A stretch of DNA of 64,000 bases from the NCBI GenBank assembly GCA_004377185.1, contig SOIM01000058.1, positions 67,828 through 131,827 on the forward strand. Direction: 5' to 3'. Source of the stretch: Methanomassiliicoccales archaeon. GTDB taxonomy: Archaea; Thermoplasmatota; Thermoplasmata; RBG-16-68-12; SOIM01. A model generated the notes under the pieces. It had not been told where the DNA came from. It did no database searches and saw only the letters and a program-made list of their open reading frames with translations. The position numbers and the translations under genes are program-made. Shown in pieces: positions 4,496 through 28,332 of the stretch; positions within the stretch are counted from its first letter, which is position 1; each line of letters opens with the position of its first letter.

Positions 4496-4723
4496 TCAAT
4501 CCTCAGATTTCTTTGGCCTTGTGTAGATGACCTTGATGGTCTCTTCATAACCCGCTATGCACTCGCGACATTCCTCGTCATTCTCTGTGTCAAAGGGTTC
4601 CAGTCGGACCTCAAATCCTAACGATTCGTACATTTCAACGGACTCGCTGAGCCTCGGTTCAGTAGCGGAGAACATTCTGGTCCAACCCTCTTTTTCCAGT
4701 TCTTCCTTCTTTGATTCGCTCAT
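4496..4723 (-). CDS. Small acidic hypothetical protein with a CxxC pair
   Basis: 78-aa ORF, 75 aa from ATG 4723. It lies in the same frame as the 832-aa oxidoreductase upstream, separated only by its TGA stop. It fills the gap before the OYE-like gene. No recognisable family. Confidence 0.4.
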   Translation of the reverse strand: MSESKKEELEKEGWTRMFSATEPRLSESVEMYESLGFEVRLEPFDTENDEECRECIAGYEETIKVIYTRPKKSED

Positions 4724-4732
4724 GCCTATCAC

Positions 4733-7231
4733 TCAGAACAAGTCGTCCAGTTCATCATTCCCTGCTGGAAGCTTTCCGTGAGCTTGTAGGAACTGTTGTA
4801 TCAGCTCGCTCTCCCTCTTGGTGTACATCTTGTCCTCTTCCCAGAGGAAGAACTTGGCATTCTCCCTTGTCTGAAGTTGCTCCTTCAGGGCCTGCTGCAT
4901 GTTCATTACGCCTGAGATAAAGACAATCATCTTGCTTTCGTCCAGAAGTTGGAAAACGCCTTCAGTGTCCGGTACTTCAGCTATGTTCTCCTCGGTTAAT
5001 GGTAGCCATTTCTCAGGAGGCAGAGGATTGCATCCAAGAGTTAGTCTAAGATTGCACCTCAAGCACCGTTTCGCTTCTTCCACTGCGGACGCCTCGTCAT
5101 ATCCGCGCTCGATCTGGTCGAATCCTTTCGTCCTCTCCTCAAGCGGCAGCACCGGCATCTTCACTCGGGGTTTGTCTGCAAAACCCTCTTCCTTTCCGAG
5201 ATATGGGTCTGGATCCTCCTTCTCCAGAAGCACCTCTTCCAATTCTCCGTCCCCACCAAGGAACCTGTCCATCGACATGGCGGCTGCTCGACCAAGGGCA
5301 ATGGCTTCGATGACGGAAGCAGGTCCACTGACAACTTCTCCTCCTGCGAACACGCGGGCTATGTTAGTCTGGTGGGTCCTCTTGTTAACGGTAATCCCGG
5401 GTCCCGTTGTTACGACACCGCTACCTTCCAGGGCTGACAAATCCGTGGATTGGCCTATTGCCAGTAGTATCATATCTGTGTCGATTGAGGTCGTTTCAGA
5501 TTCGTCATATTTCGGATTGAACCTGCCGTCCTCGTCAAAGACAGATGTACAGCGTTTCAGCTCGATTCCTGTGATCTGGCCATCGCCTCCGATTATCCTC
5601 TTCGGCCCCCACGAAACGTTGATCTTCACGCCTTCCTCCATAGCTTCTTTGATCTCATGTTCGAAGGCTGGCATTTCCTCCCTGGACTCCAGGCAGGCAA
5701 GCTGGACTTCCTTCGCACCAAGGCGAATAGCGGTCAATGCAACATCGATGGCTACGTTTCCACCCCCGATCACGACCACCCTTTCCGCCACCTGGACATC
5801 CTTTCCCATTCTAACATCTTTCAGGAAATCCAATCCCCAGAGAACTCCTGGAATATCAGAACCCTCAAGCGGGATCCTCTTGCTAAGCTGTGCACCTACT
5901 CCAATGTAAATGGCGTCATATCCCTGGTTCTTCAAATCCTCGAAACTCAGGTCCCTCCCGATTGCAGTGTTGGTCTTGAACTCCACTCCGAACTCTCCGA
6001 TCGCATCGATGTCCTTCTGAAGAACCTCTTTGGGCAACCGGTATTCGGGAAAAGCGTATCTCATCATTCCCCCCAGCTCTGGAAGGGCTTCGTAAACAGT
6101 TGCGGAATGGCCCTTTCTCTGCAGGTAATAGGCCGCGGACAGGCCGGATGGTCCAGAACCTATCACAGCCACCTTTTTTCCGGTTGGTGCAGGCGTCTTG
6201 ATGAACGACTTCCAAGCACCAGTGTCCTGCTCGGCAGCGAATCTTTTCAAGGCACATATGGCGATCGGCTCGTTCACCTCGTTCCTGGTGCACTCCGTCT
6301 CGCAAGGATGGAAGCATACGTTCCCCAGTGAATAGACAATAGGGGTGACTTCCCTTACGACTGCGGCCGCTTCAGCGAACTTCCCCTGTGCTATGAGATG
6401 GTTGATCCTGGGTACGTCCGTGGCGACTGGACATTCTCCGATGCATGGAACCAGGTCCTTCTCCCTGTCCGAGATTATTCTCATGTCTGTCAACGCACCG
6501 GTGGGACAGACTTCCACACACGCGCCACAGAATTTGCAGTTGGATTCCTTCAAGGTGGGACCGATGGTGCCCACTCGGAATTCTCCATCCTGATATGTCA
6601 AAGAAAGAGCGCCCACTCCTCTCAGGTCATTGCACGCTCTTACACACCTAGTACAGCCAATACAGATATTGTAGTCCCTCTTGAATAGAGGTTCGTCTTC
6701 CACTACTGGCCTATCCTTTGGCAGGTAGCGCGGTGTGTCCTCCCTGATGCCCACATACTCCGCTACCTTCTGCAGCTCACACCTTCCAAGCTCGGGACAG
6801 CACCTCTCGTTCACAGGCACGTTCAAGGAACATGGTTCTCTACTGCAGCCTTCTCTCTCCGCGCAAAGCAAACACGCATGAGGATGGTCCTTCAGAATCG
6901 CCATCAAGTGCTCTTTCCGTTTCTCCTGGACATCGTTTGTGTTGGTGTTAACCACCATGCCTTCACTGGCGACGGTGGCACAAGACTGCTGAAGTTCATC
7001 CATTCCTTGAATCTGAACGAGACACAATCTGCATCCTTCATACTCTCCAGCCTGGCCCTCGATCTTCTCACTTCCCCAGTAGATGCATTCTCCGCCTTTC
7101 AGACCCTTGGCAGCGGGAAGATTAGGATGAGAACACAATGTTGGAATGTAGATATCCGCAGACCTGGCTGCATCCAGAATGGTCGTGTTCTCGGGAACCT
7201 CTACTGAGACATCATCAATCGTCAACTTCAC
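4733..7231 (-). CDS. Fe-S flavoprotein fusion: NuoG/HndD-like N-terminal 2Fe-2S plus 4Fe-4S domains joined to a GltD-like (glutamate synthase small-subunit type) NAD(P)H:FAD oxidoreductase
   Basis: 832 aa. N-terminal 2Fe-2S-type Cys pattern, followed by HxxxC and CxxCxxCxxxCP clusters. GltD N-terminal helical ferredoxin CIGECP...CFHPCETEC. Two GxGxxG sites (VIGSGPSGL, VIGGGNVA). GTG start with GGTGGGG SD. Confidence 0.8.
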   Translation of the reverse strand: MKLTIDDVSVEVPENTTILDAARSADIYIPTLCSHPNLPAAKGLKGGECIYWGSEKIEGQAGEYEGCRLCLVQIQGMDELQQSCATVASEGMVVNTNTNDVQEKRKEHLMAILKDHPHACLLCAEREGCSREPCSLNVPVNERCCPELGRCELQKVAEYVGIREDTPRYLPKDRPVVEDEPLFKRDYNICIGCTRCVRACNDLRGVGALSLTYQDGEFRVGTIGPTLKESNCKFCGACVEVCPTGALTDMRIISDREKDLVPCIGECPVATDVPRINHLIAQGKFAEAAAVVREVTPIVYSLGNVCFHPCETECTRNEVNEPIAICALKRFAAEQDTGAWKSFIKTPAPTGKKVAVIGSGPSGLSAAYYLQRKGHSATVYEALPELGGMMRYAFPEYRLPKEVLQKDIDAIGEFGVEFKTNTAIGRDLSFEDLKNQGYDAIYIGVGAQLSKRIPLEGSDIPGVLWGLDFLKDVRMGKDVQVAERVVVIGGGNVAIDVALTAIRLGAKEVQLACLESREEMPAFEHEIKEAMEEGVKINVSWGPKRIIGGDGQITGIELKRCTSVFDEDGRFNPKYDESETTSIDTDMILLAIGQSTDLSALEGSGVVTTGPGITVNKRTHQTNIARVFAGGEVVSGPASVIEAIALGRAAAMSMDRFLGGDGELEEVLLEKEDPDPYLGKEEGFADKPRVKMPVLPLEERTKGFDQIERGYDEASAVEEAKRCLRCNLRLTLGCNPLPPEKWLPLTEENIAEVPDTEGVFQLLDESKMIVFISGVMNMQQALKEQLQTRENAKFFLWEEDKMYTKRESELIQQFLQAHGKLPAGNDELDDLF

Positions 7232-7278
7232 AGTATCCCCACCTTTGACGGAAACCGATGTTTCCTATTCAATCAGAG

Positions 7279-7566
7279 TTACCAAGAATGGGTGATTGCA
7301 CAGGGCTCGCAGGCCTCTATGCATGGTTCTGTCTTTGACTTATCCACTGGTTTGCACGGTCCGCAGGTGTACTTGATCTTCTTCCTTTCCGCTTCTATGA
7401 CCAGGGGTACTTCTTTCTCAGAGAGTGGGTCAAACGGGTCTGCGACCAATGCAAGAATCTTCGGCGGACAGACCTCAGCACATTTGCCGCAGCTGTCGCA
7501 TTTATCGGTATCGATGGTTATGAAGTACTCTCCCGATCCGTCCTTGTACCCGTAGTTGGCAAGCAT
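7279..7566 (-). CDS. 2x[4Fe-4S] ferredoxin (candidate electron donor of the adjacent ATP-dependent reductase/dehydratase)
   Basis: Internal ATG at 7566 with GGGGTGA SD gives 95 aa with CDSCGKCAEVCP and CGPC...CIEACEPC motifs. The longer track ORF would overlap the upstream ATPase gene, so the short form is preferred. Confidence 0.75.
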   Translation of the reverse strand: MLANYGYKDGSGEYFITIDTDKCDSCGKCAEVCPPKILALVADPFDPLSEKEVPLVIEAERKKIKYTCGPCKPVDKSKTEPCIEACEPCAITHSW

Positions 7567-7571
7567 CTGTC

Positions 7572-8453
7572 TCACCCCGCTTTCTGTTGCTTTTCCCACA
7601 GGGCCTTCGCGAAGAGTGCACCACCAAGGGCCCCTGCTATCTGAGTATCGAGCTTCACGTCGAGAGCCGTGATACCAAGTTCCTTCTCGATTCTCTTCAC
7701 CACACCGATGTTCTTCGCAATACCACCAGTGATCGCGAACTCCTTCTCTACCCCAAGGCGTTCCAGAAGTGTGACCACCCTGTGAGCCATTGCGGAGCAA
7801 TAGGCTGCAAGAACCTTGTTCTTTGGCCATCCTTCTCTGAGTAATCCAGTTGCCTCGGACTTGGCGAACACAACGCATGTGCTACTAACTGGCGGGGGCT
7901 CCTTCTCGACCTTGAACGACTCCTCGCCGACCTTCTCGATGTGTATGCCCAGCAAATCGGCGAAGACCTCCATTCCCCTTCCAGTGCCAGCGGCACACTT
8001 GTCGTTCATGAGGAAAGCGGTGACCTTGCCCCGCTCGTCCGTTCTGATGGCCTTGCAATCCTGTCCGCCCATATCCAGAACGGTTCTCACCGATGGGCCG
8101 TACATGTAGTTGGCTCCACGACCGTGGCAAGCGATCTCGGTTATTGCCCTGTCCGCGAAAGGTACATTGACCCTGCCGTATCCGGTGCCCACCACGTATT
8201 GAATCTTCTCTATTTCTAGACCAGTATCCTCAAGGGCCCAGTTCATCGCGTTCTTCGCACTGTCTGGACTGCTAGAACCAGTTCGCATGTTACTGTAGGC
8301 GTAAAGTTTGCCATCGAGGATAATGACAGCCTGAGAACTGACCGAACCCACGTCCACGCCGGCTGTTATGAATTCAGCGTCATTCCAATCCATCTCTGGG
8401 TCCTTCCAGTTGTACTCCTTCCATCTCCAATATTCAGAATCTGTGGTTGCCAT
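7572..8453 (-). CDS. BadF/BadG/BcrA/BcrD-family ATPase (acyl-CoA reductase/dehydratase activating subunit), copy 2
   Basis: 293 aa. ASKHA fold ATPase with VGTGYGR, DMGGQDCKAI, DKCAAGTG and CVVFAKSE motifs (cluster-bridging Cys). GGGGGT SD. Confidence 0.85.
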   Translation of the reverse strand: MATTDSEYWRWKEYNWKDPEMDWNDAEFITAGVDVGSVSSQAVIILDGKLYAYSNMRTGSSSPDSAKNAMNWALEDTGLEIEKIQYVVGTGYGRVNVPFADRAITEIACHGRGANYMYGPSVRTVLDMGGQDCKAIRTDERGKVTAFLMNDKCAAGTGRGMEVFADLLGIHIEKVGEESFKVEKEPPPVSSTCVVFAKSEATGLLREGWPKNKVLAAYCSAMAHRVVTLLERLGVEKEFAITGGIAKNIGVVKRIEKELGITALDVKLDTQIAGALGGALFAKALWEKQQKAG

Positions 8454-8456
8454 CTT

Positions 8457-9236
8457 CTAACCCCCTTCTGCCCTCTCCCTTGCTGCAAGAGCTGCCCCGA
8501 GGGCACCTACGTAATCCGGATCCTCAGGTACGAGAAGGTCCATGTTGAGGTCTCTCTTCAGAGATTCTACGAATCCCACATTCCTCGCTAATCCTCCAAT
8601 CAAGGCCACATCTTTTTCGATGGACAGTCTTCTTGTCATGGAAGAGATTCTGCTAGCCATTGCGTCATGGATTGCTCTTGCTATGTCCTGCTTTGCAGTC
8701 TTCGCATGAACGAGTGTGACGACCTCGGACTCGGCAAAAACAGCACACTGCGCGTTCATGGGAACGGCATTTTCTGACTTGAGGGACAGAGGACCCATCT
8801 CCTCGAGAGGGATTTCCAGGGCTCTGGACATCGCTTCTGTGAAGGCTCCCGCACCAGCAGCACATTTTTCGTTCACCACGAAATCCATCACTCTTCCTCT
8901 TTCGTCACATCTAAGGGCCTTTCCTTCCTCGGCACCGACTTCGATTATCGTCCTTGAGTTGGGAAAGAGAAATGTCGCTCCTTTTGCCGCGGCTCCAACC
9001 TGTGTTATCTCGTCATTCCTAAAAGGAACCTCTTTCTTGCCCACGCCGGTAGAAGTTATGTGCTTTATCTCATCTTTCGAAATCCCACCGCTCTCCAGGG
9101 CATCGTTGAAAGTTCTCTCGGCCGATTCGGTCAGGTTGAATCCACTAAGTGAAATGCTCTTTGATTTGATTTGTCCGTCGTCCAGGACAACGACCTTCAC
9201 GTACTTGGCGCCCATATCTATTCCTGCAACATACAT
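8457..9236 (-). CDS. BadF/BadG/BcrA/BcrD-family ATPase (activating subunit), copy 1
   Basis: Start at M8 (ATG 9236) with a perfect GGAGGTG SD. Motifs YVAGIDMGAKYVK, EKCAAGAG, CAVFAESE. Distinct from copy 2, which implies a heterodimeric ATPase. Confidence 0.85.
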   Translation of the reverse strand: MYVAGIDMGAKYVKVVVLDDGQIKSKSISLSGFNLTESAERTFNDALESGGISKDEIKHITSTGVGKKEVPFRNDEITQVGAAAKGATFLFPNSRTIIEVGAEEGKALRCDERGRVMDFVVNEKCAAGAGAFTEAMSRALEIPLEEMGPLSLKSENAVPMNAQCAVFAESEVVTLVHAKTAKQDIARAIHDAMASRISSMTRRLSIEKDVALIGGLARNVGFVESLKRDLNMDLLVPEDPDYVGALGAALAARERAEGG

Positions 9237-9260
9237 TTCCTCACACCTCCTTGACAATCC

Positions 9261-10574
9261 TCAATCCACCAATTTCTTCACTTCAAGAGCCTCCATGAAA
9301 GCATCCATTTTTCCCATCGTGCCGGCCTCGTCGAATTCCCTTTCATCTCCCATGTTTCCTTCGAACACCAACACTGGGAAACCGGCCTTCTGGAGTGCCA
9401 GTCTGTTCTCTGCTATGCCCAGGCTCAGTCCCTCGCAACCTCGATTGTAGTGCAACATGACACCATTGACGTGCCATTCTCTGGCTATCCTTATCATCAT
9501 TTCGCTCTTCAACTGGGGAGAGTAGAAGTGCTGCCATTCTGGTTTTGCAAGATTCCATATCACCAGTTCTCTCAATGCATCCTCCCTGGTGTTTATCGTG
9601 ATTCCTCTCTCCATAGGAGTGGTCTTTGGTTCCCAGGTTCCGTCCTCCTTCACTTCCCATGCCCCAGCTAGACCGAAGGAGTATAGAGAACCTATCGAGA
9701 TGCATCCGAATTTCTCGAGATACCTGAACACGCTCAAGAACCCCCACGGGGGTTGGGTATCACTCATCACCCGGGCCTGCTCGTTCCCAACAGCTGCAAT
9801 TCCTCGCTTTACTCTATCCTTCATTTCTTCATACAGGGTATCGTAGAAATCCGCAAACTCTTTCTTGGCCCTGCTCAGAACAGCGAAGACGTACAGGGAA
9901 TACATTGTTTTCTCATCGAGAGGGGCTGGGATGTTCTTGTTGAGTTCGCAGATCTTCGCCCAGGAGTTAGTCGATCGGAACTCGGTTTTCACAGCTTCGA
10001 TCAACTTCTTGTCGTCATAGGTTCTTCCGGTCGTTTTCTCCAGCCAATCGATACCGTCCATGAGCTGCCCGACAATGTACTGAATTCTGTTCTCATCAAT
10101 CGCCTCGAAGGGTCCGACTGCCACGTCTACCGAATAAGCTGGAATATCACCCTCCAACTCCGAAACGACCTGGTACCACTTGGCATGACTGCAACAAATA
10201 TGATCCTGCCAAACGAAATCAGCCTTTGGAAACTCCCCACCGAAGGCGTACTTGTTAAGAATGATTGAACCCCAATAATTCCTCATGTAGGAGCACAAGT
10301 CCCTTGCGTAGCCGGCAGCCTCCGTTGCTTCCAGGCATTGAAGTGAGAATTCTCTGTTGAACGCAATTGATGCGGCGTAGGGCTCCCCTGTTAGAGGATA
10401 GACATCATCACCTAGACCGTATGGCACAGCATCGAAGGACCAAGCGCCCCCGCACCATCTAATTCCACCCTCTTCGTGAGCTTTGGCGTAATCCTCATAA
10501 TACTTCATTCTCAATCTTTTTGCTTCTTTCCAGCATTTCAAGGGCTCTGTCGGGTATTTTGTTTCCGTTGCCAT
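9261..10574 (-). CDS. 2-hydroxyacyl-CoA dehydratase / benzoyl-CoA reductase catalytic subunit (HgdB/BcrB/BadE family)
   Basis: 437 aa with HgdB/BcrB-family fold signatures. GGAGGTG SD. Tightly coupled to the neighbouring genes. Confidence 0.8.
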
Positions 10575-10586
10575 TTGTTCACCTCC

Positions 10587-11711
10587 TCAGAAAAGATCCT
10601 CCCCTTCAAGCATCTCCAGAAATGCCTCCACGCGTGTCTTGAACTGTCCAACTGCTACCGTCACATCCAGTTCCAAGAACAACGTTTGTATGCCATTCGA
10701 TTCCAGTGTCTTTTTTATGGAAGGAATGTCCAACTCATGAGGGTCGCAGAACTTCTGCTGTAGCAGTATCGCACCGCTCACATTCCAATCCTTTGCAATG
10801 TTGAGAATATGGGGAATCCTAGTCCTTACCTCCCAGTCCTTGCTCGGGCAGGGAGGTCTCTGCACGTACCTCTCAGCTATTGCCAGGAGCCTGTCCCCGT
10901 TCGGCTGGACATCATTCCAAAAATACCTGCTGCCAGTGCAGTGGTCATCAGCAACGATTGTCGAACCGCAGCCTTCCACCATATCTACGAATTTCGTGTC
11001 GTCATTCTCGCTGCCCAGAATCATCAGCCTTTGACCCGTTGATCTCTCCAGCTTTCTCCCCTGAAGTTCCTTGATCGTCTCCTCAAGAATGTCACTGTGG
11101 TCGTTCTTCTCGATCGTCTGACTTGAAACGGCCATATACATTGCTTCCAGACCTGTCATCGGCGGGTCCGCCTCTTTCCGAAGCTCGTAGGCCTCTCGCA
11201 TCAACCGCCTGTTCTTGTTCATCATCTCTATTCCGCGATCCAGGTCTTCGTCCGTAATCTCTTTTTCCGTCCAATCCTCAACTGCCTTCTTGAACCTCTC
11301 GAGTTCGCCTTTCAGATAGGGGACGGCCCGAGGACTCTGCACCTTGTTGGGCATGGGAAGGTAGTAGCTGAATGGAACGGGTATGTGCATCTCCCAGCTG
11401 GTGTAGGCTTGCCTGATGTGCAGGCACGATTGTGCGATCATTAAACCATCAAGATAGTCGTATCTCCCCTTCAATCCTTGAGCCAGACAGTCCCTGCAGA
11501 ACGGGCAGAACATACCGAAGATATGCGGTTCGGTTACGTCCTGCGGCTCATGACTGCCCAGAATGCGTACCGGCAACACGTCCGCGGCCAGGAGTATCTC
11601 CTCCGGCACATACGTGCAGAAATAGCCCATCACCTTTCCACCAGTCTTCTCCTTCCATTCCTTAGCGTACTCGTGTTTTGCATCGTACCATTCTTTGAAC
11701 ATCTCAATCAT
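10587..11711 (-). CDS. 2-hydroxyacyl-CoA dehydratase / benzoyl-CoA reductase catalytic subunit (HgdA/BcrC/BadD family)
   Basis: Start at internal ATG 11711 (M100 of the track ORF) with a GGAGAGGAGGATGAGG SD, overlapping the GNAT stop by ATGA. 375 aa, HgdA-like Cys-containing fold. Confidence 0.8.
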   Translation of the reverse strand: MIEMFKEWYDAKHEYAKEWKEKTGGKVMGYFCTYVPEEILLAADVLPVRILGSHEPQDVTEPHIFGMFCPFCRDCLAQGLKGRYDYLDGLMIAQSCLHIRQAYTSWEMHIPVPFSYYLPMPNKVQSPRAVPYLKGELERFKKAVEDWTEKEITDEDLDRGIEMMNKNRRLMREAYELRKEADPPMTGLEAMYMAVSSQTIEKNDHSDILEETIKELQGRKLERSTGQRLMILGSENDDTKFVDMVEGCGSTIVADDHCTGSRYFWNDVQPNGDRLLAIAERYVQRPPCPSKDWEVRTRIPHILNIAKDWNVSGAILLQQKFCDPHELDIPSIKKTLESNGIQTLFLELDVTVAVGQFKTRVEAFLEMLEGEDLF

Positions 11712-12148
11712 TTCCTCATCCTCCTCTCCAGGTTGATGAATTCGCTCCTTTCGAAGCCTATTGATTTGAAGAATGCAAGCAGGTCGCTCGAATCCCATCT
11801 CACGGCTGTGAAAATCCTGTTTATCCCCTTTGAGTTGAAACCTCTGAGCATGGCCTTTCCGAGCTTCTTGCCAATCCCTTGACCCATGTAGTTGGGATCG
11901 ATACCCACATCCACGAGCCAGCCGCTCTTGGTGACACCGAAATCCAGCGTCTTGGTCTCCCCTATGATGAAGCCCACTACCTTCTTGCTGAATGTTGCCA
12001 CAAAACATTGATTATCACTCTCGAGCAGACGAATGGCGATCTCGTGCTGCCAGAACTTGGGCACCTTCTTCTTGGTTATGGATTCTCTTATGGCTATGGT
12101 TGCCGGGATGTCTTTCTCCCTCATCCTTCTTATTTCTACAGTGCTCAT
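11708..12148 (-). CDS. GNAT-family N-acetyltransferase
   Basis: 146 aa, GNAT-family fold. GAGGTGGGGG SD. Confidence 0.8.
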   Translation of the reverse strand: MSTVEIRRMREKDIPATIAIRESITKKKVPKFWQHEIAIRLLESDNQCFVATFSKKVVGFIIGETKTLDFGVTKSGWLVDVGIDPNYMGQGIGKKLGKAMLRGFNSKGINRIFTAVRWDSSDLLAFFKSIGFERSEFINLERRMRK

Positions 12149-12157
12149 TCCCCCACC

Positions 12158-12301
12158 TCATTCAAGTCTTATGATCTTGACCTTCTTGCCAACCCAGTCA
12201 GGCGGGAGGTATACCCTTCCGCTGTTTCCAGCCCGTTTGACTTCCTTCTCGATCATTTCCTGTCCGAAAACCTCGAACTTGGAATCTTTTGCTCTTGCCA
12301 T
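12158..12301 (-). CDS. AbrB/MazE-like swapped-hairpin small DNA-binding protein (DUF2080-like), first gene of the operon
   Basis: 47-aa ORF, below the track cutoff: MARAKDSKFEVFGQEMIEKEVKRAGNSGRVYLPPDWVGKKVKIIRLE. Carries the GNSGRVYLP..VGKKV hallmark of AbrB/SpoVT-type barrels. An AT-rich promoter lies immediately upstream. Confidence 0.5.
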   Translation of the reverse strand: MARAKDSKFEVFGQEMIEKEVKRAGNSGRVYLPPDWVGKKVKIIRLE

Positions 12302-12420
12302 GCCTACCCCTAGATTTAGTTATAATACCGTTGCAATATCATTATAAAGTAACTACATTATAATTGTTTCCCATCAAGCAACTAGAGGAGATCAACTCGT
12401 ATTTGTACAGCATTCCATCT
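12302..12420 (-). promoter_or_regulatory. AT-rich promoter region (TATA-like boxes) of the minus-strand reductase operon
   Basis: ttataataccgttgcaatatcattataaagtaactacattataatt directly upstream of the first operon gene. The only long AT-rich stretch before a 12-kb run of coupled genes. Confidence 0.3.
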
Positions 12421-12497
12421 AGCGTATCTTCCTTAGGAAAATCGGAGATGTGAGATGAACCGTCAGTGGTTTGGGATATGCCGGGTGTTCTGGTTTC

Positions 12498-15400
12498 TCA
12501 GCCTTCCACATCTTCCAGCATTTCGGGCCCCTTGGGTTCTTCTTCTGGAGGGGGTGGTGTCTCTTCCTCCGCAGGTGCTTCGGCTGGTTCTTCCGCAGGT
12601 GCTTCGGTTGGTTCTTCCGCAGGTGCTTCGGTTGGTGCCTCTGCCGGTTCTTCCGGCGGTGGCGGGAGTTCCTCTTCGGCAGGGGGTACCTCTGCAACCT
12701 TCGGCTTTCTCCTCAGCATAAGGCCAACCACAGCAACCACCACTACGATGACGATTATCAAGACAAGTAGCCACCAGTATTCCTCCAAGAAGGACGGAGC
12801 AGCTTTCTCTGCTACTGTGATAGTGCCCTGGACCTCGTTCCAATTACCATTCTCATCGCGAGCGGAGATCTTGTAGTCGTAGTCTCCCGCCTCGTCAAAG
12901 GAGAATTCGTACCCGTACACACCTCCACCCAAGTCATCCATAGATCTGTTGGACAGAACGATTAGGGCATCTGAAACCCTGACAATCTCAATACGTACCC
13001 TGTCCACACCGCTCGCATCGTCGACAGTTGCTTCGAATGTGACAGTTTCCCCGGCCTTTGGTTTCTCTGGGTCAACCGTAACATCGATTGTGGGAGGCGT
13101 CAGCTCACGAATATCGAAGCCTCCAGAAGCTGAAGCCCAATTGTCGCTCGTATCGTTCGCCCAGATTACGAAAGTGTACTCTCCTTCGATATCGAAGTCG
13201 ACTTCATAGTAGTATTCGTCGTCGCCAATGTCATACCTCATTGAGTAGTTTCCCACCTCCTCGCCGTCCGGGTCGGTGATGTTAACCCACACTTCGTCGA
13301 CTTGAACATTGTCCTGCACTGTTGCGGAAATCCTTACGTCCTCGCCCGGGGCTTGCGGATCGGGTTCTGCTTTTTGATCCGTTATTGTCGGACTTTGGGT
13401 ATCAGGTGGCGCACGAATTATTAAATCAACACAGGCGGTAAATGATACGTTGTGGTTAGGCACTTCATCCCATCCATGGACGCATACTTGATACGTTCCA
13501 AGCGCCATACCAGAGGTATAGATTGTGACGTTCACGTCCTCAGAAGGTCCGTCGAACGCCCCATCCAACGGGAACATAGGTGTGGTTGTGAGCCAATCTC
13601 TCTCGATGGTGTAGTTCGCTCCAGCGATATTCGACCCTAGTGCCGGATTGTCGTCGATCGTAGCGTTCAGGTAGACTGTTGTACCGGGCCAGACAGTGGC
13701 GGAAATCGGGTCCTCATTCAAAAGAACGCTCAGGACGTATGGAGGTTTATCATCCACGGAAGAGATGTTCAGTATGGCACATGCACCAATCGAATTGTAG
13801 TTCGGGACATCATCCCAACCGTACACGCAAACCTCATAGTCAGCATCCGCCCAACCAGTGGTGTCGATGAAACTTGGGGTAGAGGTCACGTCTTCGGTGA
13901 AGGTATCAAACGCACCATCCGCGGCCTGCAACGGTACACTGGTGAGCCAATCGCCATCTATTGTGTAGTTTGCTCCTTGGATTGCGGTACTTCCTCGACC
14001 TCCAGTGTCGTCCACCGTTGCATTGACAAAAACTGAAGTATCAGGCATAACAGAAACTGTTGGCTGACCATTCAGTGTAACGCCTGCCACGGCAGGGTCG
14101 ATATCATCAAGAACGATTATCTGAACTGCAGGTGCCGAGTCATTATAGTTCATATCTACGTCCCAAGCGTGCACATAGTAATCGAAGACACCAACTGAAG
14201 TAGGCACAAGAATGTTGGCGGTCACATTCTCCGTGGGTTGGTCGAACGACATGTCCACTGGGAACATATCAATCCCTGGCCAAAAATCAACCAGAGGCGT
14301 TGTGTAGTTGGCCCCCCAGACTACTGAAGAACCGGTAGTGGTATCATCTATTGTGGCGTTCAGAGTGGCTGTGGCCGGAAGTGTGGACAGCAAGAAAACT
14401 GCAGACGGTCCACCATCTATCTCGATATTGCTGATTTGTGGTGCCAGATCATCCAGGACAGTGACAGATGTGCATGAACCCGTGGTGTTGTAGTTCGGAA
14501 CTATGTCCTGGCCGTACACACAGTAGATTGTTGTTCCAACTGGAGGTGTGATCACCGCGGTAACATCTTCGGTGGGCGAATCAAACATGCCATCCGCTGG
14601 ATTCATGAGAGTGCTGGTCGCCCAGTCTTGAACACCGATCGTATAGTTCGCACCACCAATGGGCAAGTTGCCCGTTCCGCTATCATCGATTGTCGCGTTC
14701 AAATATATGACTGGAGGAATATTGGAGAGGTCGTAGATTGGATTCATTTGACCATTAATCCTCACATTCAGTACCTGAGGGGCGTTCGTGTCAGGAGCAC
14801 CTTGGCCGGCAGTCAGATTGACCCACACGTAGTCAATCGTATCGAACGGATCCGGGTCCATCAGAGGGTCGACCACGAAATTCGGAGTGCCTATGCCACT
14901 TATAGAAACATTGACAACTGGGTCATAGCCCCAAAGATTGAAGCCCGCGGGCAACAGCCCATTGAGAATGTTCCTCTCCGCATCAGTATCATAGGTCGTA
15001 TTTATCTCAAGTCTGTGCGTGCTGGCAACGGGTATGGTTGTGTTGGAAGTGAAATTCGCTACCATGAGACCCGAAGGAGGATTTGGGGATACGACCGAAC
15101 CCAACAAATCAAAGATGAATGAGTCTGTGCCTGGGACCAGATCATAATGGATTCCATCCACATAGAATTGGTCAATTGTGGTCGAGAAAATCGGGGGCGC
15201 AGCGCCACCAGACATAAAAAGGAAAACATCCAATTCAGTCTGGTTGACAAAGCCGTCCCTGTTCCCGACCACCATGTCTATCATGAACCTCATCGATTGG
15301 TTGTCCACCCCCATTTCAAACCTCGTATCGGAAACAACGTTATCCCAGTCGGTCATCACCAGGGTCGTATTCATTAGGTCAGCAACTGGCAATTCAAGCG

Positions 15401-17546
15401 ACCTTGTGACCTCAGCAGAGCCAACAACAGATGTCTGGGATATGTTAGACTGCAAATCCCAACTGTCTATGAGCACAAAGAAGTCTCCGTCAAATACCGT
15501 GACCTCATAATAGCCCGTGGAGTTGGAGGTTGTCTGCATCATCCAGCCGTAGGTGCCGTTCAATACGACGATGTCAGCCATATCCACGGAAGACCCGCTG
15601 GTTGCATTATACACATATCCCCATATGGTCGCTGGCGGGAGGGACAGAAAGTCAGCAGCGAAGTAGAGACCTGTCATATGCATGTCCGAATCGAGGAAAA
15701 GAGGTCCCATCGGATCGAAAGACATCAAATTCATGAAGACGAAATATGGTCCGTCCGCTCCATGTCTGCTTATGTCTATCCCGCTGAATCTGAGAGGAAT
15801 GAATGTGGCCCCAGCACTGAGATTCGCAATCTGCTGAGCCCCGGTAATCGGCATGAAAAATGGGTCCAACAGCGTAGCAACGACCGCATACCACCCGGGA
15901 TCGTTCACAAGAATCGAAGCATTTACGACCAAGAAATCATACACACCGTCCGGAGGAGCGTCTATGTCCAGGGCGTAGTCACTGTGGGGAGGATTGAAAA
16001 GCGCTGCAGGCAAGTCGAAATCTGTTGCGAGATATAGCTGGGTCAGGAAGGAGTCCGAATCAAGTGTGAGAAACATCATATCAAGGACATCGAGGAACAC
16101 AAGATAGGGGCCATCAATTCCAGACATAGAGATGTCCGAGCCCGGGAACAGAAGATCCACCGTCTGTGAACCGATATCCAGCCAGGTTGAGTTCGTTGCT
16201 GACGTGATGAAGAACATTCCAGTTTGGTCGTACAAGTATCCCCAGACAGTATAACTGCCGGGAGCGTCCACGGTGAGGTTTGCGTTCACCACCAGGAAAT
16301 TGTAGTCCGAATCACCATCAGTGTCGAGCCCATAGTCCCAGTGCGGTGGAGAGAATGCACATGGAGGATTGGGCTCAAAATCGGTGAACAGATATGCGGC
16401 TGTGACGTGCGTGTCGCTGTCAAGCAGATTCCAGAACTCATCATAGAGATTGAGGTCTATCAGGTAGGGTCCATCCACTCCAAAATTGAAAATCTGGAAA
16501 CCGTAGAACTTCAAATCAACTGTCTGGATTCCCGTTGAAAGATAAGTCACATTCTGGGTCCAACCGAAGGCGGTGGACCCGTCCACACTGTAATTCCCTG
16601 CAGTGGTCACATCTACGCTGGCAGTGACAACGAGGAATTCATACAGAAGATTCCCGTTTGTATCCCAGCCCCAATCACTATGTGGCGGCAAGAAAGTCGC
16701 AGGTGGGAATGCGAAATCGGTTGCCAAATACGGGTTCGTGAAGTAGGTGTCGTTGTGCAAGAAATTGAACATACTGTCATACAAGTAAAGGTCAACCCTG
16801 TACGGTCCATCAATACCAGAACCGCGAATAAGATACCCCAAGAAACCGATGTCGACGGTGTGCGTGCCAACGGTCAGGAAGGTGAAATTGACCTGGAAAT
16901 CTATGAATGTCATTCCAGTAGCGTCAAGAAGCGTCGCATCGAGCTCATAGTTGCCTGAGACGTTGACGGTCACCTCCGCACCTACGACGAGAAGGTCCCA
17001 CAGCATATCCCCATTGTTATCGATGCCCTGATCCGAGTGGGGAGGGGTGAAGTAGGCGTCCGGACCTTCGAAATCGGTCGCCAAATAGGCGCTTGTGGTA
17101 TGAGTGTTAAGATCCAAAGGCATGAATAAATCGTCAAACAACACCACCTCGACTTGATAGGGGCCGTCATAGCCAGATTGACGGATTATGAACCCAGGGA
17201 ACTTCACATTTATCCATTGGGCTCCAAGACCTAGATCGGCCATTGCAAATTGGCTGTCTATCATGATCATTCCCGAGTTGTCATAGAGGTTACCTATGAG
17301 ATAGAAGATTCCAGCGCCTGTTACATCAACGCTCGCATTCACAATGAGTTCGTCATAGAGGCCGTTTGGCGGCATATCAGTATCCACGGCCTGGTCCGAG
17401 TGGGGAGGCGTAAAACTCCCGCTCGAGGCGCCCACGATGCCAGCAATCCCAGAGAACACACCGAAGACCATGAATGCCGCTATCGTCAGCACAAACATTC
17501 TTCCGGCTCGCTCACTAGAGGGTTTTGAACAGGTTGCATCTTTCAT
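12498..17546 (-). CDS. Giant cell-surface protein: signal peptide, about 7 tandem ~95-aa beta-sandwich repeats, further Ig-like/PKD-like domains, C-terminal TM helix and acidic Pro/Glu-rich tail
   Basis: Start at M10 (ATG 17546) with GGAGGAAG SD; 1682 aa from this start (the track ORF from GTG 17573 is 1691 aa). Hydrophobic signal MFVLTIAAFMVFGVF. Recurring FTPPHSD...DGPY...LYD repeats. WANDTSDNW-type domains. Tail WWLLVLIIVIVVVVAVVGL then (AEEPTEAP)n. Many N-x-S/T sequons. Confidence 0.8.
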   Translation of the reverse strand: MKDATCSKPSSERAGRMFVLTIAAFMVFGVFSGIAGIVGASSGSFTPPHSDQAVDTDMPPNGLYDELIVNASVDVTGAGIFYLIGNLYDNSGMIMIDSQFAMADLGLGAQWINVKFPGFIIRQSGYDGPYQVEVVLFDDLFMPLDLNTHTTSAYLATDFEGPDAYFTPPHSDQGIDNNGDMLWDLLVVGAEVTVNVSGNYELDATLLDATGMTFIDFQVNFTFLTVGTHTVDIGFLGYLIRGSGIDGPYRVDLYLYDSMFNFLHNDTYFTNPYLATDFAFPPATFLPPHSDWGWDTNGNLLYEFLVVTASVDVTTAGNYSVDGSTAFGWTQNVTYLSTGIQTVDLKFYGFQIFNFGVDGPYLIDLNLYDEFWNLLDSDTHVTAAYLFTDFEPNPPCAFSPPHWDYGLDTDGDSDYNFLVVNANLTVDAPGSYTVWGYLYDQTGMFFITSATNSTWLDIGSQTVDLLFPGSDISMSGIDGPYLVFLDVLDMMFLTLDSDSFLTQLYLATDFDLPAALFNPPHSDYALDIDAPPDGVYDFLVVNASILVNDPGWYAVVATLLDPFFMPITGAQQIANLSAGATFIPLRFSGIDISRHGADGPYFVFMNLMSFDPMGPLFLDSDMHMTGLYFAADFLSLPPATIWGYVYNATSGSSVDMADIVVLNGTYGWMMQTTSNSTGYYEVTVFDGDFFVLIDSWDLQSNISQTSVVGSAEVTRSLELPVADLMNTTLVMTDWDNVVSDTRFEMGVDNQSMRFMIDMVVGNRDGFVNQTELDVFLFMSGGAAPPIFSTTIDQFYVDGIHYDLVPGTDSFIFDLLGSVVSPNPPSGLMVANFTSNTTIPVASTHRLEINTTYDTDAERNILNGLLPAGFNLWGYDPVVNVSISGIGTPNFVVDPLMDPDPFDTIDYVWVNLTAGQGAPDTNAPQVLNVRINGQMNPIYDLSNIPPVIYLNATIDDSGTGNLPIGGANYTIGVQDWATSTLMNPADGMFDSPTEDVTAVITPPVGTTIYCVYGQDIVPNYNTTGSCTSVTVLDDLAPQISNIEIDGGPSAVFLLSTLPATATLNATIDDTTTGSSVVWGANYTTPLVDFWPGIDMFPVDMSFDQPTENVTANILVPTSVGVFDYYVHAWDVDMNYNDSAPAVQIIVLDDIDPAVAGVTLNGQPTVSVMPDTSVFVNATVDDTGGRGSTAIQGANYTIDGDWLTSVPLQAADGAFDTFTEDVTSTPSFIDTTGWADADYEVCVYGWDDVPNYNSIGACAILNISSVDDKPPYVLSVLLNEDPISATVWPGTTVYLNATIDDNPALGSNIAGANYTIERDWLTTTPMFPLDGAFDGPSEDVNVTIYTSGMALGTYQVCVHGWDEVPNHNVSFTACVDLIIRAPPDTQSPTITDQKAEPDPQAPGEDVRISATVQDNVQVDEVWVNITDPDGEEVGNYSMRYDIGDDEYYYEVDFDIEGEYTFVIWANDTSDNWASASGGFDIRELTPPTIDVTVDPEKPKAGETVTFEATVDDASGVDRVRIEIVRVSDALIVLSNRSMDDLGGGVYGYEFSFDEAGDYDYKISARDENGNWNEVQGTITVAEKAAPSFLEEYWWLLVLIIVIVVVVAVVGLMLRRKPKVAEVPPAEEELPPPPEEPAEAPTEAPAEEPTEAPAEEPAEAPAEEETPPPPEEEPKGPEMLEDVEG
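12571..12666. repeat. 24-bp tandem coding repeat x4 (gcaggtgcttcggttggttcttcc) encoding the (AEEPTEAP)n tail of the giant surface protein
   Basis: Four head-to-tail 24-nt units read directly from the sequence, with 1-3 substitutions each. Confidence 0.8.
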
Positions 17547-17716
17547 CCACGCTTCCTCCAAACCTTTTCCCACGTTGTCAAATGCTTTATCTATTAAAAT
17601 CTTGGCTTCTCAATTCCCATTTGAATAACTGACCATTCTCGCATATCTCGCAGCGAAATCGCTTTTCCAAAACAATAAATATCGCTGTTGGCTTACGCCC
17701 GCATGGGAGGAGTGAT

Positions 17717-18670
17717 ATGGGAAGTTTCGAACCAAAACCAGCTGAAGAATTCGACTTCAAGGACATAATCTACGAGAAGAAGGACTATGTGGCAAAGGTC
17801 ACGATAAACCGGCCCCAGGTGTACAACGCCTACAGTATTCTGGCACTGAGAGAGATGGCCGAGGCCTTCAAAGACGCTTCCTGGGACGATTCGGTCGCGG
17901 TCCTGGTTCTGACGGGAGCTGGGGACAAGGCATTCTGTACAGGGGGGGACGTCAAGGAATACGCAGACAACTATACTGTTAAACCGAGGGACTTCTGGAA
18001 ATGGATGGGCGACTACACTCTGGCACATGACATGCTGAGGAACTGTGGGATACCCACAATCGCAAGGGTGAACGGGATTGTTGCAGGGGGAGGGAACGAA
18101 TTCCACATGTCCTGCGATCTTTCCATTGCCGCAGAGCACGCGGAGATACTCCAGGTCGGGACCAAGGTTGGATCAGTAGCGGCTGGAGGAGCCACTCAGT
18201 TCCTTCCAATAATGGTTGGAGACCGAAGGGCGAGAGAGATTCTCTACCTTTGCGAGAAAATCCCGGCGAAGAAAGCGCTCGAGTGGGGACTGGTGAACGA
18301 GGTTGTTCCGTACGAAGAACTGGATGCTGCGGTTGACAGGATGTGTAAGAAGCTCATAGACAAGTTCCCGGAGTGCATGAGATACACCAAACAGCAGGTC
18401 AATTTCTGGAAGGATCTGGCCTGGCACTCGACGATAGGACATGCAAGGGATTGGCTGTCCATACATTTCGCAAGCTACGAGCCCTGGGAAGGGATGAAAT
18501 CCTTCGTGGAGAAGAGAGAGACCGGATACCGCAAGTTGAGGGACCTGGCAGCTCAAGGCAAATCATCGGAGTTCGTTTGGGGACCGTACACAAAAGAATG
18601 TGGCAAGTGTGGTGCCAAGGGCATTCCCGAGGAGTTCGGGTACTGCGGCAAGTGCGGGGAGAAACTCTGA
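17717..18670 (+). CDS. Enoyl-CoA hydratase/isomerase (crotonase) superfamily enzyme of the MenB/BadI type with a C-terminal CxxC...CxxC zinc-ribbon extension
   Basis: AFCTGGDVKEY, IARVNGIVAGGGNE and FVEKRE crotonase motifs. C-terminus ECGKCGAKGIPEEFGYCGKCGEKL. GGGAGGAGTG SD. Confidence 0.85.
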   Translation: MGSFEPKPAEEFDFKDIIYEKKDYVAKVTINRPQVYNAYSILALREMAEAFKDASWDDSVAVLVLTGAGDKAFCTGGDVKEYADNYTVKPRDFWKWMGDYTLAHDMLRNCGIPTIARVNGIVAGGGNEFHMSCDLSIAAEHAEILQVGTKVGSVAAGGATQFLPIMVGDRRAREILYLCEKIPAKKALEWGLVNEVVPYEELDAAVDRMCKKLIDKFPECMRYTKQQVNFWKDLAWHSTIGHARDWLSIHFASYEPWEGMKSFVEKRETGYRKLRDLAAQGKSSEFVWGPYTKECGKCGAKGIPEEFGYCGKCGEKL

Positions 18671-27974: not shown

Positions 27975-28280
27975 GTGATTGGGAAGGAAACAATGGAGAA
28001 ACTGGGCCTCGAAGAGGCAACGATAGTCTCTTTCGACATTCCCAGCACAGACAAATCCAGGAGAAGCATCATTCAAAGATTCCTCCATGGGCGCAGCGAC
28101 ACAAGGAACCTGAACGGAAAGATGAAGACATACAGATATCCAGGCCTATTGGATGAGGGCGGATTCAGATTGGGGCAATCGGTGTTTCTCCTTCCCCCTG
28201 ATCTTGCATCTAGACTGATCCTGAAACTGAGGGAACTGAAGATAAGCCATCGTTATTGGGATGTGTTGGTCCACGGGTAG
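27975..28280 (+). CDS. Small hypothetical protein with weak Cas2/VapD-like sequence pattern; candidate DNA-binding or nuclease-fold regulator
   Basis: GTG 27975 with GGAGGG SD; 101 aa (95 from ATG 27993). ATIVSFDIPSTDKSRRSIIQRFL ... GFRLGQSVFLLPPDLASRLILKLREL resembles Cas2 beta1-alpha1 and the (G)xRvQxSVFec...L..L segment, with a roughly 20-aa insertion. No other cas genes in the window. Low-confidence recollection-based call. Confidence 0.45.
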   Translation: MIGKETMEKLGLEEATIVSFDIPSTDKSRRSIIQRFLHGRSDTRNLNGKMKTYRYPGLLDEGGFRLGQSVFLLPPDLASRLILKLRELKISHRYWDVLVHG

Positions 28281-28332
28281 TTCCCCGCATTTGGCAGGAA
28301 GAGCTTCGGTCAACACTCAAGCATTCTCAAGG

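Follow-up and report, generated by a model that had tools for sequence, protein, structure and literature searches.

Described class I reductases and the locus under study

ATP-dependent (class I) benzoyl-CoA reductases (BCRs), which attack the aromatic ring of benzoyl-CoA in an oxygen-independent reaction, have been described in both bacteria and archaea. In Aromatoleum (Azoarcus) sp. CIB, the system comprises BzdNOPQ, BzdM and BzdV, of which BzdM is the ferredoxin and BzdV a putative NADPH:ferredoxin oxidoreductase (PMC5658619), and the structure of BzdNO of this organism has been solved (PDB 8S02; Fuchs et al. 2025, PMC11971306). We analysed a stretch of 64,000 nucleotides (nt) of contig SOIM01000058.1, assigned to a Methanomassiliicoccales archaeon. 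This whole stretch is hereafter called the window, and all positions are given in it unless another locus is named. As judged from its sequence, a gene array in this window most probably encodes a BZD-type class I BCR together with its electron supply, in an archaeon of the Thermoplasmata lineage. The array shares with Aromatoleum the N-O-P-Q-ferredoxin gene order and a BzdV-like oxidoreductase, and the cluster ligands, the residues Glu65 and His131 and the contacts to the benzoyl and thioester groups are common to both. Unlike the Aromatoleum system, it is found in an archaeal host, its BzdV-like gene lies directly 3' of the ferredoxin gene, and neither bzdSTU nor bzdWXYZA was found in the array. 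It also differs by a Gly residue at position 44 of BzdO, by leading genes for a DUF2080-family protein and a GNAT acetyltransferase, with no BzdR-type regulator gene seen, and by the appended genes iorAB and that of an old yellow enzyme (OYE) similar to 2-naphthoyl-CoA reductase (NCR) and 1,5-dienoyl-CoA oxidase (DCO).

In archaea, a class I BCR with measured activity is that of Ferroglobus placidus, encoded by Ferp_1184-1187, with the ferredoxin encoded by Ferp_1180 (PMC6500515). As described, this enzyme resembles the one proposed here in being archaeal, ATP-dependent, ferredoxin-using and tied to the degradation of benzoate and other aromatics (PMC6500515), but its host is a hyperthermophilic Fe(III) respirer of the Archaeoglobi. 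Collocated class I BCR genes have been predicted in sediment metagenome-assembled genomes (MAGs) of Ca. Yaplasmales (Thermoplasmatota; PMC9239135) and of Hermodarchaeota (Asgard archaea; PMC8163825), the cluster of the latter also carrying a BzdV protein, a ferredoxin, Dch and Had (PMC8163825), and class I BCR genes have been discussed for Chloroflexi as well (PMC5736913). In contrast with the Yaplasmales and Hermodarchaeota clusters, the window has no Dch-like gene, its Had-like and hydrolase-like genes are dispersed over ~17 kb, and an OYE gene follows the BzdV-like gene. Two Asgard loci of our collection, L066 and L068, have the same N-O-P-Q-ferredoxin-V order as the window, with 69% BzdO identity. 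The locus thus belongs to an already recognised kind of gene cluster rather than representing a new enzyme system, since archaeal class I BCRs have been published (PMC9239135, PMC8163825, PMC6500515).

Two more distant systems, BcrCBAD-Fdx of Thauera aromatica and MbdONQP of Thauera chlorobenzoica, follow the same logic, with two HGD-D subunits, two different ATPases and a ferredoxin donor (54 bits for MbdO). BCR- and MBR-type enzymes are stable heterotetramers, whereas the modules of the BZD type are predicted to associate transiently (PMC11971306). Finally, ThnBCDE-ThnF of N47 and NaphS2 combine a Bzd-like four-subunit reductase with a ferredoxin and an oxidoreductase, with NCR-family OYE genes nearby (PMC12016498). 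The window differs from the Thn system in that the BzdO pocket is the benzoyl pocket, a single OYE with an altered proton relay is present, and no genes for the activation of polycyclic aromatic hydrocarbons were seen.

Organization of the bzd array

The listing of open reading frames (ORFs) was examined for positions 5000-15000. According to it, all operon genes are on the minus strand, in the following order.

12158-12301, minus strand: DUF2080-family small protein, 47 aa; first gene of the array, 9 nt from the GNAT gene
11708-12148, minus strand: GNAT acetyltransferase, 146 aa (Pfam Acetyltransf_1); overlaps the start of bzdN with its stop codon (ATGA)
10587-11711, minus strand: BzdN, gamma subunit, 374 aa, ATG at 11711; predicted carrier of the [8Fe-9S] double cubane; 12 nt to bzdO
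9261-10574, minus strand: BzdO, beta subunit, 437 aa; predicted to hold the [4Fe-4S]-OH2 cluster and the benzoyl-CoA pocket; 24 nt to bzdP
8457-9236, minus strand: BzdP-like ATPase, delta subunit, 259 aa; 3 nt to bzdQ
7572-8453, minus strand: BzdQ ATPase, alpha subunit, 293 aa; 5 nt to the ferredoxin gene
7279-7566, minus strand: BzdM-like 2x[4Fe-4S] ferredoxin, presumed electron donor, 95 aa; 47 nt to the BzdV-like gene
4733-7231, minus strand: BzdV-like Fe-S flavoprotein, presumed NAD(P)H:ferredoxin oxidoreductase, 832 aa, as suggested by its Pfam domains

An earlier reading of this DNA, made from the sequence only, had described five tightly coupled genes. This description is confirmed by the gaps of 3-24 nt between bzdN and the ferredoxin gene and by the presence of Shine-Dalgarno-like GGAGG/GAGGTG motifs 5-10 nt upstream of every operon start, as read directly at the junctions. 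The subunit sizes of 437, 259 and 293 aa given in that reading were also borne out, but its first subunit of 375 aa is in fact 374 residues long, with the ATG start at 11711. The same array is present in locus L081, on a 155-kb ENA contig with ~96% DNA identity to the window, for which independent gene calls yielded proteins of 47, 146, 374, 437, 259, 293 and 95 aa.

Assignment of the reductase subunits

Both large subunits correspond to the HGD-D family and both ATPases to the BcrAD_BadFG family in Pfam. As Pfam alone cannot separate reductases from dehydratases, we used the curated equivalog cutoffs of NCBIfam for this purpose. Three of the four subunits score above the cutoffs of Bzd models, namely the 374-aa protein with BzdN (TIGR03190; 507.9 bits, cutoff 453.8), the 437-aa protein with BzdO (TIGR03191; 675.8 bits, cutoff 448.6) and the 293-aa ATPase with BzdQ (TIGR03192; 446.8 bits, cutoff 380.2). 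The 259-aa ATPase passed only the generic activase model TIGR00241 (217 bits, cutoff 125), in a model library that has no BzdP. The Thauera models BcrC, BcrB, BcrA and BcrD yielded 129, 40, 152 and 138 bits against cutoffs of 421, 487, 578 and 313, respectively, and a Thauera-type BcrCBAD assignment was therefore ruled out. Similarly low scores were obtained with the dehydratase models HadB and HadC (152 and 198 bits, cutoffs 750 and 700) and, for BzdN, with the double-cubane model NF040772 (195 bits, cutoff 350).

By these scores and by gene order, the cluster is of the bzdNOPQ-bzdM(-bzdV) type of Azoarcus/Aromatoleum and not of the bcrCBAD type of Thauera. The sequence-only reading had likened it to bcrCBAD-fdx; the class I layout on which this likeness was based stands, but the Thauera type does not, as the order is exactly bzdNOPQ-bzdM and the Bcr models remain at 40-152 bits for cutoffs of 313-578. 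The broader proposal, in which a dearomatising aryl-CoA reductase of the ATP-dependent class I has two different ATPases as a heterodimer and a ferredoxin encoded next to them, is well supported, with N, O and Q above the Bzd cutoffs and the catalytic and cluster residues kept. Profile models place N, O and Q with Bzd and not with Had-type proteins, and the other possibility raised at the time, a novel ATP-driven acyl-CoA dehydratase, found no support, with the dehydratase models far below their cutoffs.

The two ATPases are only 36% identical to each other, which indicates that they are distinct proteins and rules out a recent duplication. Both retain the cysteine motifs of the bridging cluster, as had been noticed before, with the sequences NEKCAAGAG...QCAVFAESE in P and NDKCAAGTG...TCVVFAKSE in Q, and the two cluster-motif cysteines of each align with those of HgdC (1hux). 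BzdQ matches MbdQ (9gai_D) with 214 bits, and P also matches Mbd subunits.

Conservation of the cluster ligands and of the benzoyl-CoA pocket

The window BzdO and BzdN proteins match chains 8s02_A and 8s02_B of the Aromatoleum structure with 635 bits (62% identity) and 500 bits (56% identity), respectively. In the same PDB comparison, the solved HadB and HadC match BzdO and BzdN at 128 and 165 bits, and the methylbenzoyl-CoA reductase proteins MbdO and MbdN match them at 54 and 103 bits. In Aromatoleum BzdO, Cys95, Cys128 and Cys380 ligate a [4Fe-4S] cluster that has a water molecule on its fourth iron, and Glu65 and His131 flank this water; Trp46, Tyr97, Leu302 and Leu383 surround the benzoyl ring, and Tyr97, Tyr298 and Gln274 hold the thioester oxygen (PMC11971306). 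The window BzdO keeps W46, E65, C95, Y97, C128, H131, Q274, Y298, L302, C380, E381, G382 and L383. Among the 120 closest database homologues, the cluster ligands C95, C128 and C380 are invariant, as are E65 and H131, the ring-surrounding residues W46, Y97, L302 and L383, and the thioester-binding Q274 and Y298.

The sole difference among the named residues concerns the second-shell residue Ser44, which in Aromatoleum hydrogen-bonds the catalytic Glu65 and is located 3.6-4 Å from C3 of the ring (PMC11971306). It is replaced by Gly in the window BzdO (window residue 43) and in 120/120 of the closest homologues. The presence of Gly44 in the window protein and in all these homologues identifies it as a clade signature rather than a lesion, and on this sequence evidence it sets an environmental Bzd clade apart from Aromatoleum.

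In BzdN, Cys36, Cys73, Cys100, Cys263, Cys293 and Cys327, together with Arg53, Arg267, Arg290 and His330 from the surroundings of the cluster, are invariant in 73 homologues, and Cys76 is present in 70 of them. This residue pattern is consistent with an [8Fe-9S] double cubane, for which the six invariant Cys residues are candidate ligands.

Electron supply and proposed reaction

The 95-aa protein harbours eight Cys residues (positions 23, 26, 29, 33, 68, 71, 82 and 86), all invariant in 66 homologues, which form the motifs CxxCxxCxxxCP and CxxCx10CxxxC. Only the first motif is recognised by Pfam Fer4, and the pattern is consistent with a 2x[4Fe-4S] ferredoxin whose second motif has an insertion. 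The BzdV-like protein consists of 2Fe-2S, NuoG-like 4Fe-4S, GltD/NfnB-like FAD/NAD(P)H and DUF7508 modules, as detected with Pfam and by NfnA/NfnB/GltD-like matches in the PDB. A full-length homologue with 56% identity, in a Heimdallarchaeota MAG, bears the NCBI name 'BzdV protein'. The names BzdM and BzdV are used here on the basis of gene position, Cys or domain pattern and this named homologue, and not of the Aromatoleum sequences.

From these features we infer the electron route, the coupling to ATP, the substrate and the roles of the BzdV-like, DUF2080, GNAT and OYE proteins. The mechanistic steps that go beyond family membership are modelled on the biochemistry of the Aromatoleum and Thauera enzymes, and they represent the best-supported model by analogy. 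The ferredoxin would be reduced by the BzdV-like protein at the expense of NAD(P)H, and probably also by indolepyruvate:ferredoxin oxidoreductase (IOR) at the expense of arylpyruvates. It would pass electrons to the [4Fe-4S] cluster bridging the BzdP/BzdQ heterodimer, whose potential would be lowered by ATP hydrolysis, so that an electron could reach the [8Fe-9S] double cubane of BzdN and, from there, the water-ligated [4Fe-4S] cluster of BzdO. Benzoyl-CoA, accommodated in the Trp/Tyr/Leu pocket of BzdO, would then undergo a Birch-like reduction to cyclohexa-1,5-diene-1-carbonyl-CoA, as a hydrogen atom plus an electron are passed to C4/C3. The dienoyl-CoA would probably be processed by modified beta-oxidation, with a Had-like Zn-dehydrogenase and a BadI/Oah-like crotonase encoded elsewhere in the window as candidate enzymes.

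Distribution and synteny

We counted the occurrence of the genes over the 80 best genomic loci, whose BzdO proteins are 68-82% identical to that of the window. The N-O-P-Q-ferredoxin-V order is kept, with BzdN found in 78 loci, BzdO in all 80, P (between O and Q) and Q in 71 each, the ferredoxin in 65 and V in 58. The closest loci are from Thermoplasmata/Methanomassiliicoccales-type MAGs, namely L001 (a closed 2-Mb chromosome, CP070767), L002, L003 and L048, which have flanking genes in common with the window, in agreement with the archaeal setting proposed in the sequence-only reading. In L001, a masked run of N at ~11309-11695 interrupts bzdP, and the apparent lack of bzdPQ in that locus carries no weight. 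Such proteins from Thermoplasmata already carry the NCBI name 'benzoyl-CoA reductase, bzd-type, subunit O'.

BzdO proteins of the same clade are found in Aminicenantes, Planctomycetota, Acidobacteriota, Gemmatimonadota, Zixibacteria, Peptococcaceae and Asgard archaea. In a rough neighbour-joining tree, built without bootstraps and with part of the reference clades, the window falls inside one Thermoplasmata group, and a second Thermoplasmata group and an Asgard group are located apart from it, among bacterial sequences. The scattering of archaeal groups among bacteria suggests repeated horizontal transfer.

Leader genes and upstream region

The GNAT gene had been correctly placed at the head of the operon in the sequence-only reading, as evidenced by its Acetyltransf_1 signature and its ATGA overlap with bzdN. 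The gene preceding it had been taken for an AbrB-like regulator. Its product belongs instead to the DUF2080 family (NCBIfam NF033496; 73.9 bits, cutoff 22). The DUF2080-GNAT-bzdN arrangement is kept in 16 of the 80 loci, all of them archaeal (14 Thermoplasmata-type and 2 Promethearchaeota), with DUF2080 proteins of 62-98% identity. GNAT homologues are more widespread. Of 33 loci with such a gene, 28 harbour it directly 5' of bzdN and on the same strand, and many of these are bacterial. The DUF2080 protein is a possible regulator, and the archaea-restricted DUF2080-GNAT pair may mean that the operons are regulated through acetylation or by a small protein that binds DNA.

12302-12497, minus strand: AT-rich intergenic region 5' of the operon, presumed archaeal promoter, with TTATAATG / TATTATAAC boxes read from the sequence

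This region is presumed to contain the archaeal promoter from its position and composition. A scan for bacterial promoters and terminators gave results at chance level, but its bacterial model is not applicable to an archaeal host.

Genes downstream of the BzdV-like gene

The co-directional array extends past the ferredoxin and BzdV-like genes up to the left edge of the window.

4496-4732, minus strand: small conserved CxxC protein, 75-78 aa
2468-4459, minus strand: OYE/FAD/[4Fe-4S] flavoenzyme of the NCR / 1,5-dienoyl-CoA oxidase subfamily, 663 aa
1969-2466, minus strand: co-directional protein without family match, ~162-165 aa
3-1862, minus strand: iorA, alpha subunit of indolepyruvate (arylpyruvate):ferredoxin oxidoreductase; leaves the window at its left edge

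The CxxC mini-protein is encoded after the BzdV-like gene in 26 of the 80 loci, across phyla. Its residues C55, C58, W17, R27 and E41 do not vary among 27 sequences, and it has no match in Pfam or NCBIfam. The ~162-165-aa protein, also without family match, occurs only in the closest loci.

The 663-aa flavoenzyme has the architecture of NCR-type class III aryl-CoA reductases, with an OYE TIM barrel, a [4Fe-4S] linker, an FAD domain and a CxxCxxC...C motif. In the PDB, it matches NCR (6qkg) with 530 bits and 43.5% identity, and FadH with 253 bits. In NCR, Tyr197 is the proton donor, acting with Tyr320 and a proton path composed of Tyr82, Tyr156 and His123/Arg155 (PMC6502838). Y82, Y197 and Y320 are kept in the window protein, but H284 is replaced by Q, R155 by L and Y156 by F, and H123 falls in a deletion. 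Many homologues with 58-65% identity are found in bacterial MAGs, and one of them, 61% identical, carries the name 'putative 1,5-dienoyl-CoA oxidase'. The OYE gene is linked to bzd genes in only 3 sister loci of the 80. A 1,5-dienoyl-CoA oxidase of Thauera was reportedly described by Thiele and colleagues in 2008; it belongs to the same OYE subfamily and presumably protects BCR from oxygen. By analogy with that Thauera enzyme, the window OYE most likely acts on dienoyl-CoA.

The iorA product scores above the cutoff of TIGR03336 (730.1 bits, cutoff 650.9), and its gene begins 106 nt beyond that of the ~162-165-aa protein. It is 97.6% identical to the corresponding gene of the sister strain L081, where (L081 14254-20391) iorA is followed by iorB and by genes for an aminotransferase, for an Fe-S protein with four clusters and for an aldehyde:ferredoxin oxidoreductase (AOR). 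L081 also contains an additional 1.7 kb (L081 12492-14169), with a 465-aa ORF without family match, between the 162-aa gene and iorA; this segment is absent at the window junction, ~1945-1969. The iorAB linkage suggests aromatic amino acids as a source of both substrate and low-potential electrons, and, given the adjoining IOR, aminotransferase and AOR genes, it is plausible that precursors of benzoyl-CoA derive from these amino acids. No enzymes leading from arylacetyl-CoA to benzoyl-CoA were seen.

Lower-pathway candidates and other genes of the window

Two genes outside the array encode candidates for the steps that follow ring reduction.

17717-18670, plus strand: crotonase of the MenB/BadI/Oah type, 317 aa; zinc ribbon (CxxC...CxxC) at the C-terminus
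28333-29361, minus strand: Had-like Zn-dependent dehydrogenase, 342 aa

The crotonase scores 204 bits with BadI (cutoff 468), 200 with MenB and 192.6 with Oah (cutoff 464), short of the equivalog cutoff in every case. It shares 70% identity with the enoyl-CoA hydratase (ECH) encoded at the head of the Asgard clusters of ECH-ECH-ZnADH-bzdNOPQ-ferredoxin-V composition, and in L001 a homologous gene directly adjoins the operon in divergent orientation. We regard it as a candidate non-canonical ring-opening hydrolase on the basis of these relationships. The crotonase gene and the bzd operon are adjacent in L001; in the window, another gene (12498-17573, minus strand) lies between them. Its 1691-aa product is a secreted or surface protein, rich in repeats, that has a transmembrane helix at its C-terminus and a PAEEP-rich tail.

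The best NCBIfam match of the Had-like protein is TIGR03201, dearomat_had (252.7 bits, cutoff 338.65), and it is 54-58% identical to Zn-dependent alcohol dehydrogenases encoded within the bzd clusters of L066 and L051. Its gene is overlapped by an antisense ORF of 393 aa (28261-29442, plus strand) without family match. An equivalog-level Dch-Had-Oah lower pathway is thus not present in the window. In the Asgard loci L066 and L068, which belong to the same clade, a similarly sub-threshold trio of Dch-, Had- and ring-hydrolase-like genes clusters with bzd, and the Peptococcaceae locus L051 likewise represents a full pathway cluster.

Other genes of the window related to acyl-CoA metabolism code for a short-chain dehydrogenase/reductase, a thiolase with its OB-fold partner, a two-subunit CoA transferase, an ADP-forming acyl-CoA synthetase, two acyl-CoA dehydrogenases and an electron-transfer flavoprotein subunit. 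A classical AOR is also encoded. Its assignment to a class II BCR (BamB) was ruled out, as it scores 364 bits as a classical AOR and 199 bits with BamB. Amid the acyl-CoA metabolism genes, a protein of 447 aa with a PocR sensory domain and a PAS domain (53467-54810, minus strand) might be a small-molecule-responsive regulator. No tRNA genes were found in the 64-kb window.

Alternative assignments

Several observations weigh against a BZD-type BCR that takes part in benzoyl-CoA degradation. The Had-like and hydrolase-like proteins are below their equivalog cutoffs, and the 64 kb yielded neither a Dch-like hydratase nor a benzoate-CoA (aryl-CoA) ligase. Ser44 of BzdO, which in Aromatoleum contacts Glu65 near C3 of the ring, is Gly across the whole clade, and the neighbour-joining tree puts Aromatoleum on a long branch outside this clade. 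The P subunit, for which no dedicated BzdP model is available, matches HadI, the activator of 2-hydroxyisocaproyl-CoA dehydratase, at 198 bits, about equal to its match with MbdQ. At the time of PMC11971306, isolation of an entire BZD-type enzyme was still to be achieved. An enzyme that consumes 2 ATP per ring would be costly for a presumably fermentative sediment archaeon, following the argument of PMC5736913. Lastly, the presence of an NCR-family OYE in the array is reminiscent of the naphthoyl-CoA (thn) system.

This last point leads to the only rival explanation with real support, namely that the array encodes a Bzd-like class I reductase for another aryl- or alicyclic-CoA ester, such as 5,6,7,8-tetrahydro-2-naphthoyl-CoA, the substrate type of ThnBCDE, acting with the NCR-like OYE on polycyclic substrates. 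The best solved relative of the OYE is indeed 2-naphthoyl-CoA reductase, with the three Tyr residues kept, and thn operons follow the same logic, with ECH, bzdNOPQ-like, ferredoxin and oxidoreductase genes and OYE genes close by (PMC12016498, PMC13365417). We nevertheless hold this explanation to be improbable. W46, Y97, L302 and L383 of BzdO are identical to those of the benzoyl-CoA-bound structure and invariant in the clade, and N, O and Q are above the equivalog cutoffs of benzoyl-CoA reductases. There is one OYE where N47 has two, its residues at the positions of H284, R155, Y156 and H123 differ from those of NCR, and its relatives at 58-65% identity, including the putative 1,5-dienoyl-CoA oxidase, are closer to it than NCR is. 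Moreover, the linkage between OYE and bzd genes is restricted to 3/80 loci, and no genes for a carboxylase or a naphthoate-CoA ligase were seen. We likewise consider it quite improbable that the OYE and BzdNOPQ form a combined module for class III (ATP-independent) and class I (ATP-dependent) aryl-CoA reduction. If true, such a module would give archaea a first system for CoA esters of bicyclic or otherwise extended aromatic compounds, comparable to the route through NCR, DHNCR and ThnBCDE of sulfate-reducing bacteria. In a milder form of this improbable reading, the OYE would carry the reduction of the 1,5-dienoyl-CoA further, in a Rhodopseudomonas-like branch of the BadH/BadI type fed from aromatic amino acids via IOR.

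Two other enzyme types share families with the array. A 2-hydroxyacyl-CoA dehydratase of the Hgd/Had/Fld/Lcd type with its activator ATPases, serving amino-acid fermentation, would be composed of the same HGD-D and BcrAD_BadFG families; the match of P with the HadI activator and the adjoining amino-acid catabolic genes (iorAB, aminotransferase) would fit this possibility, but we give it hardly any credence. The HadB and HadC models yielded 152 and 198 bits where 750 and 700 are needed, and the solved HadBC proteins match at 128/165 bits as against 635/500 for BzdNO. The Cys and Arg residues of the BzdN double cubane are kept, whereas they are not described for dehydratase beta subunits, and His131 of BzdO corresponds to Ala in HadB (PMC11971306). 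In addition, the presence of two different ATPases, a dedicated ferredoxin and a BzdV-like reductase fits a stoichiometric supply of electrons rather than catalytic one-electron activation. An ATP-dependent reductase of the double-cubane-cluster protein (DCCP) type, acting on small non-CoA substrates, appears just as far-fetched. BzdN does match NF040772 (195 bits) and the DCCP structures 7yyl and 6eno (104 bits), but these scores are far below both the cutoff of 350 and the score with the BzdN model, and DCCPs are homodimeric, unlike the N/O heterodimer with its conserved CoA-ester pocket. The BZD-type class I BCR therefore remains our preferred assignment, carried by the family membership of N, O and Q, the conservation of ligand, catalytic and pocket residues, the heterodimeric ATPase pair, the 8-Cys ferredoxin and the synteny.

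Significance

The new details brought by this locus are modest. They include the DUF2080-GNAT pair that leads archaeal operons, the Gly44 shared by the whole clade, the mini-protein with its CxxC motif, the OYE similar to NCR and DCO, the link to iorAB and the presence of Had-like and BadI/Oah-like genes in the vicinity. Current knowledge is not overturned by them. The locus provides a clean and complete example of a Bzd-type reductase in Thermoplasmata, in which the ligands and the pocket of the 2025 crystal structure are intact, and it supports the view that uncultured sediment archaea are able to dearomatise benzoyl-CoA.

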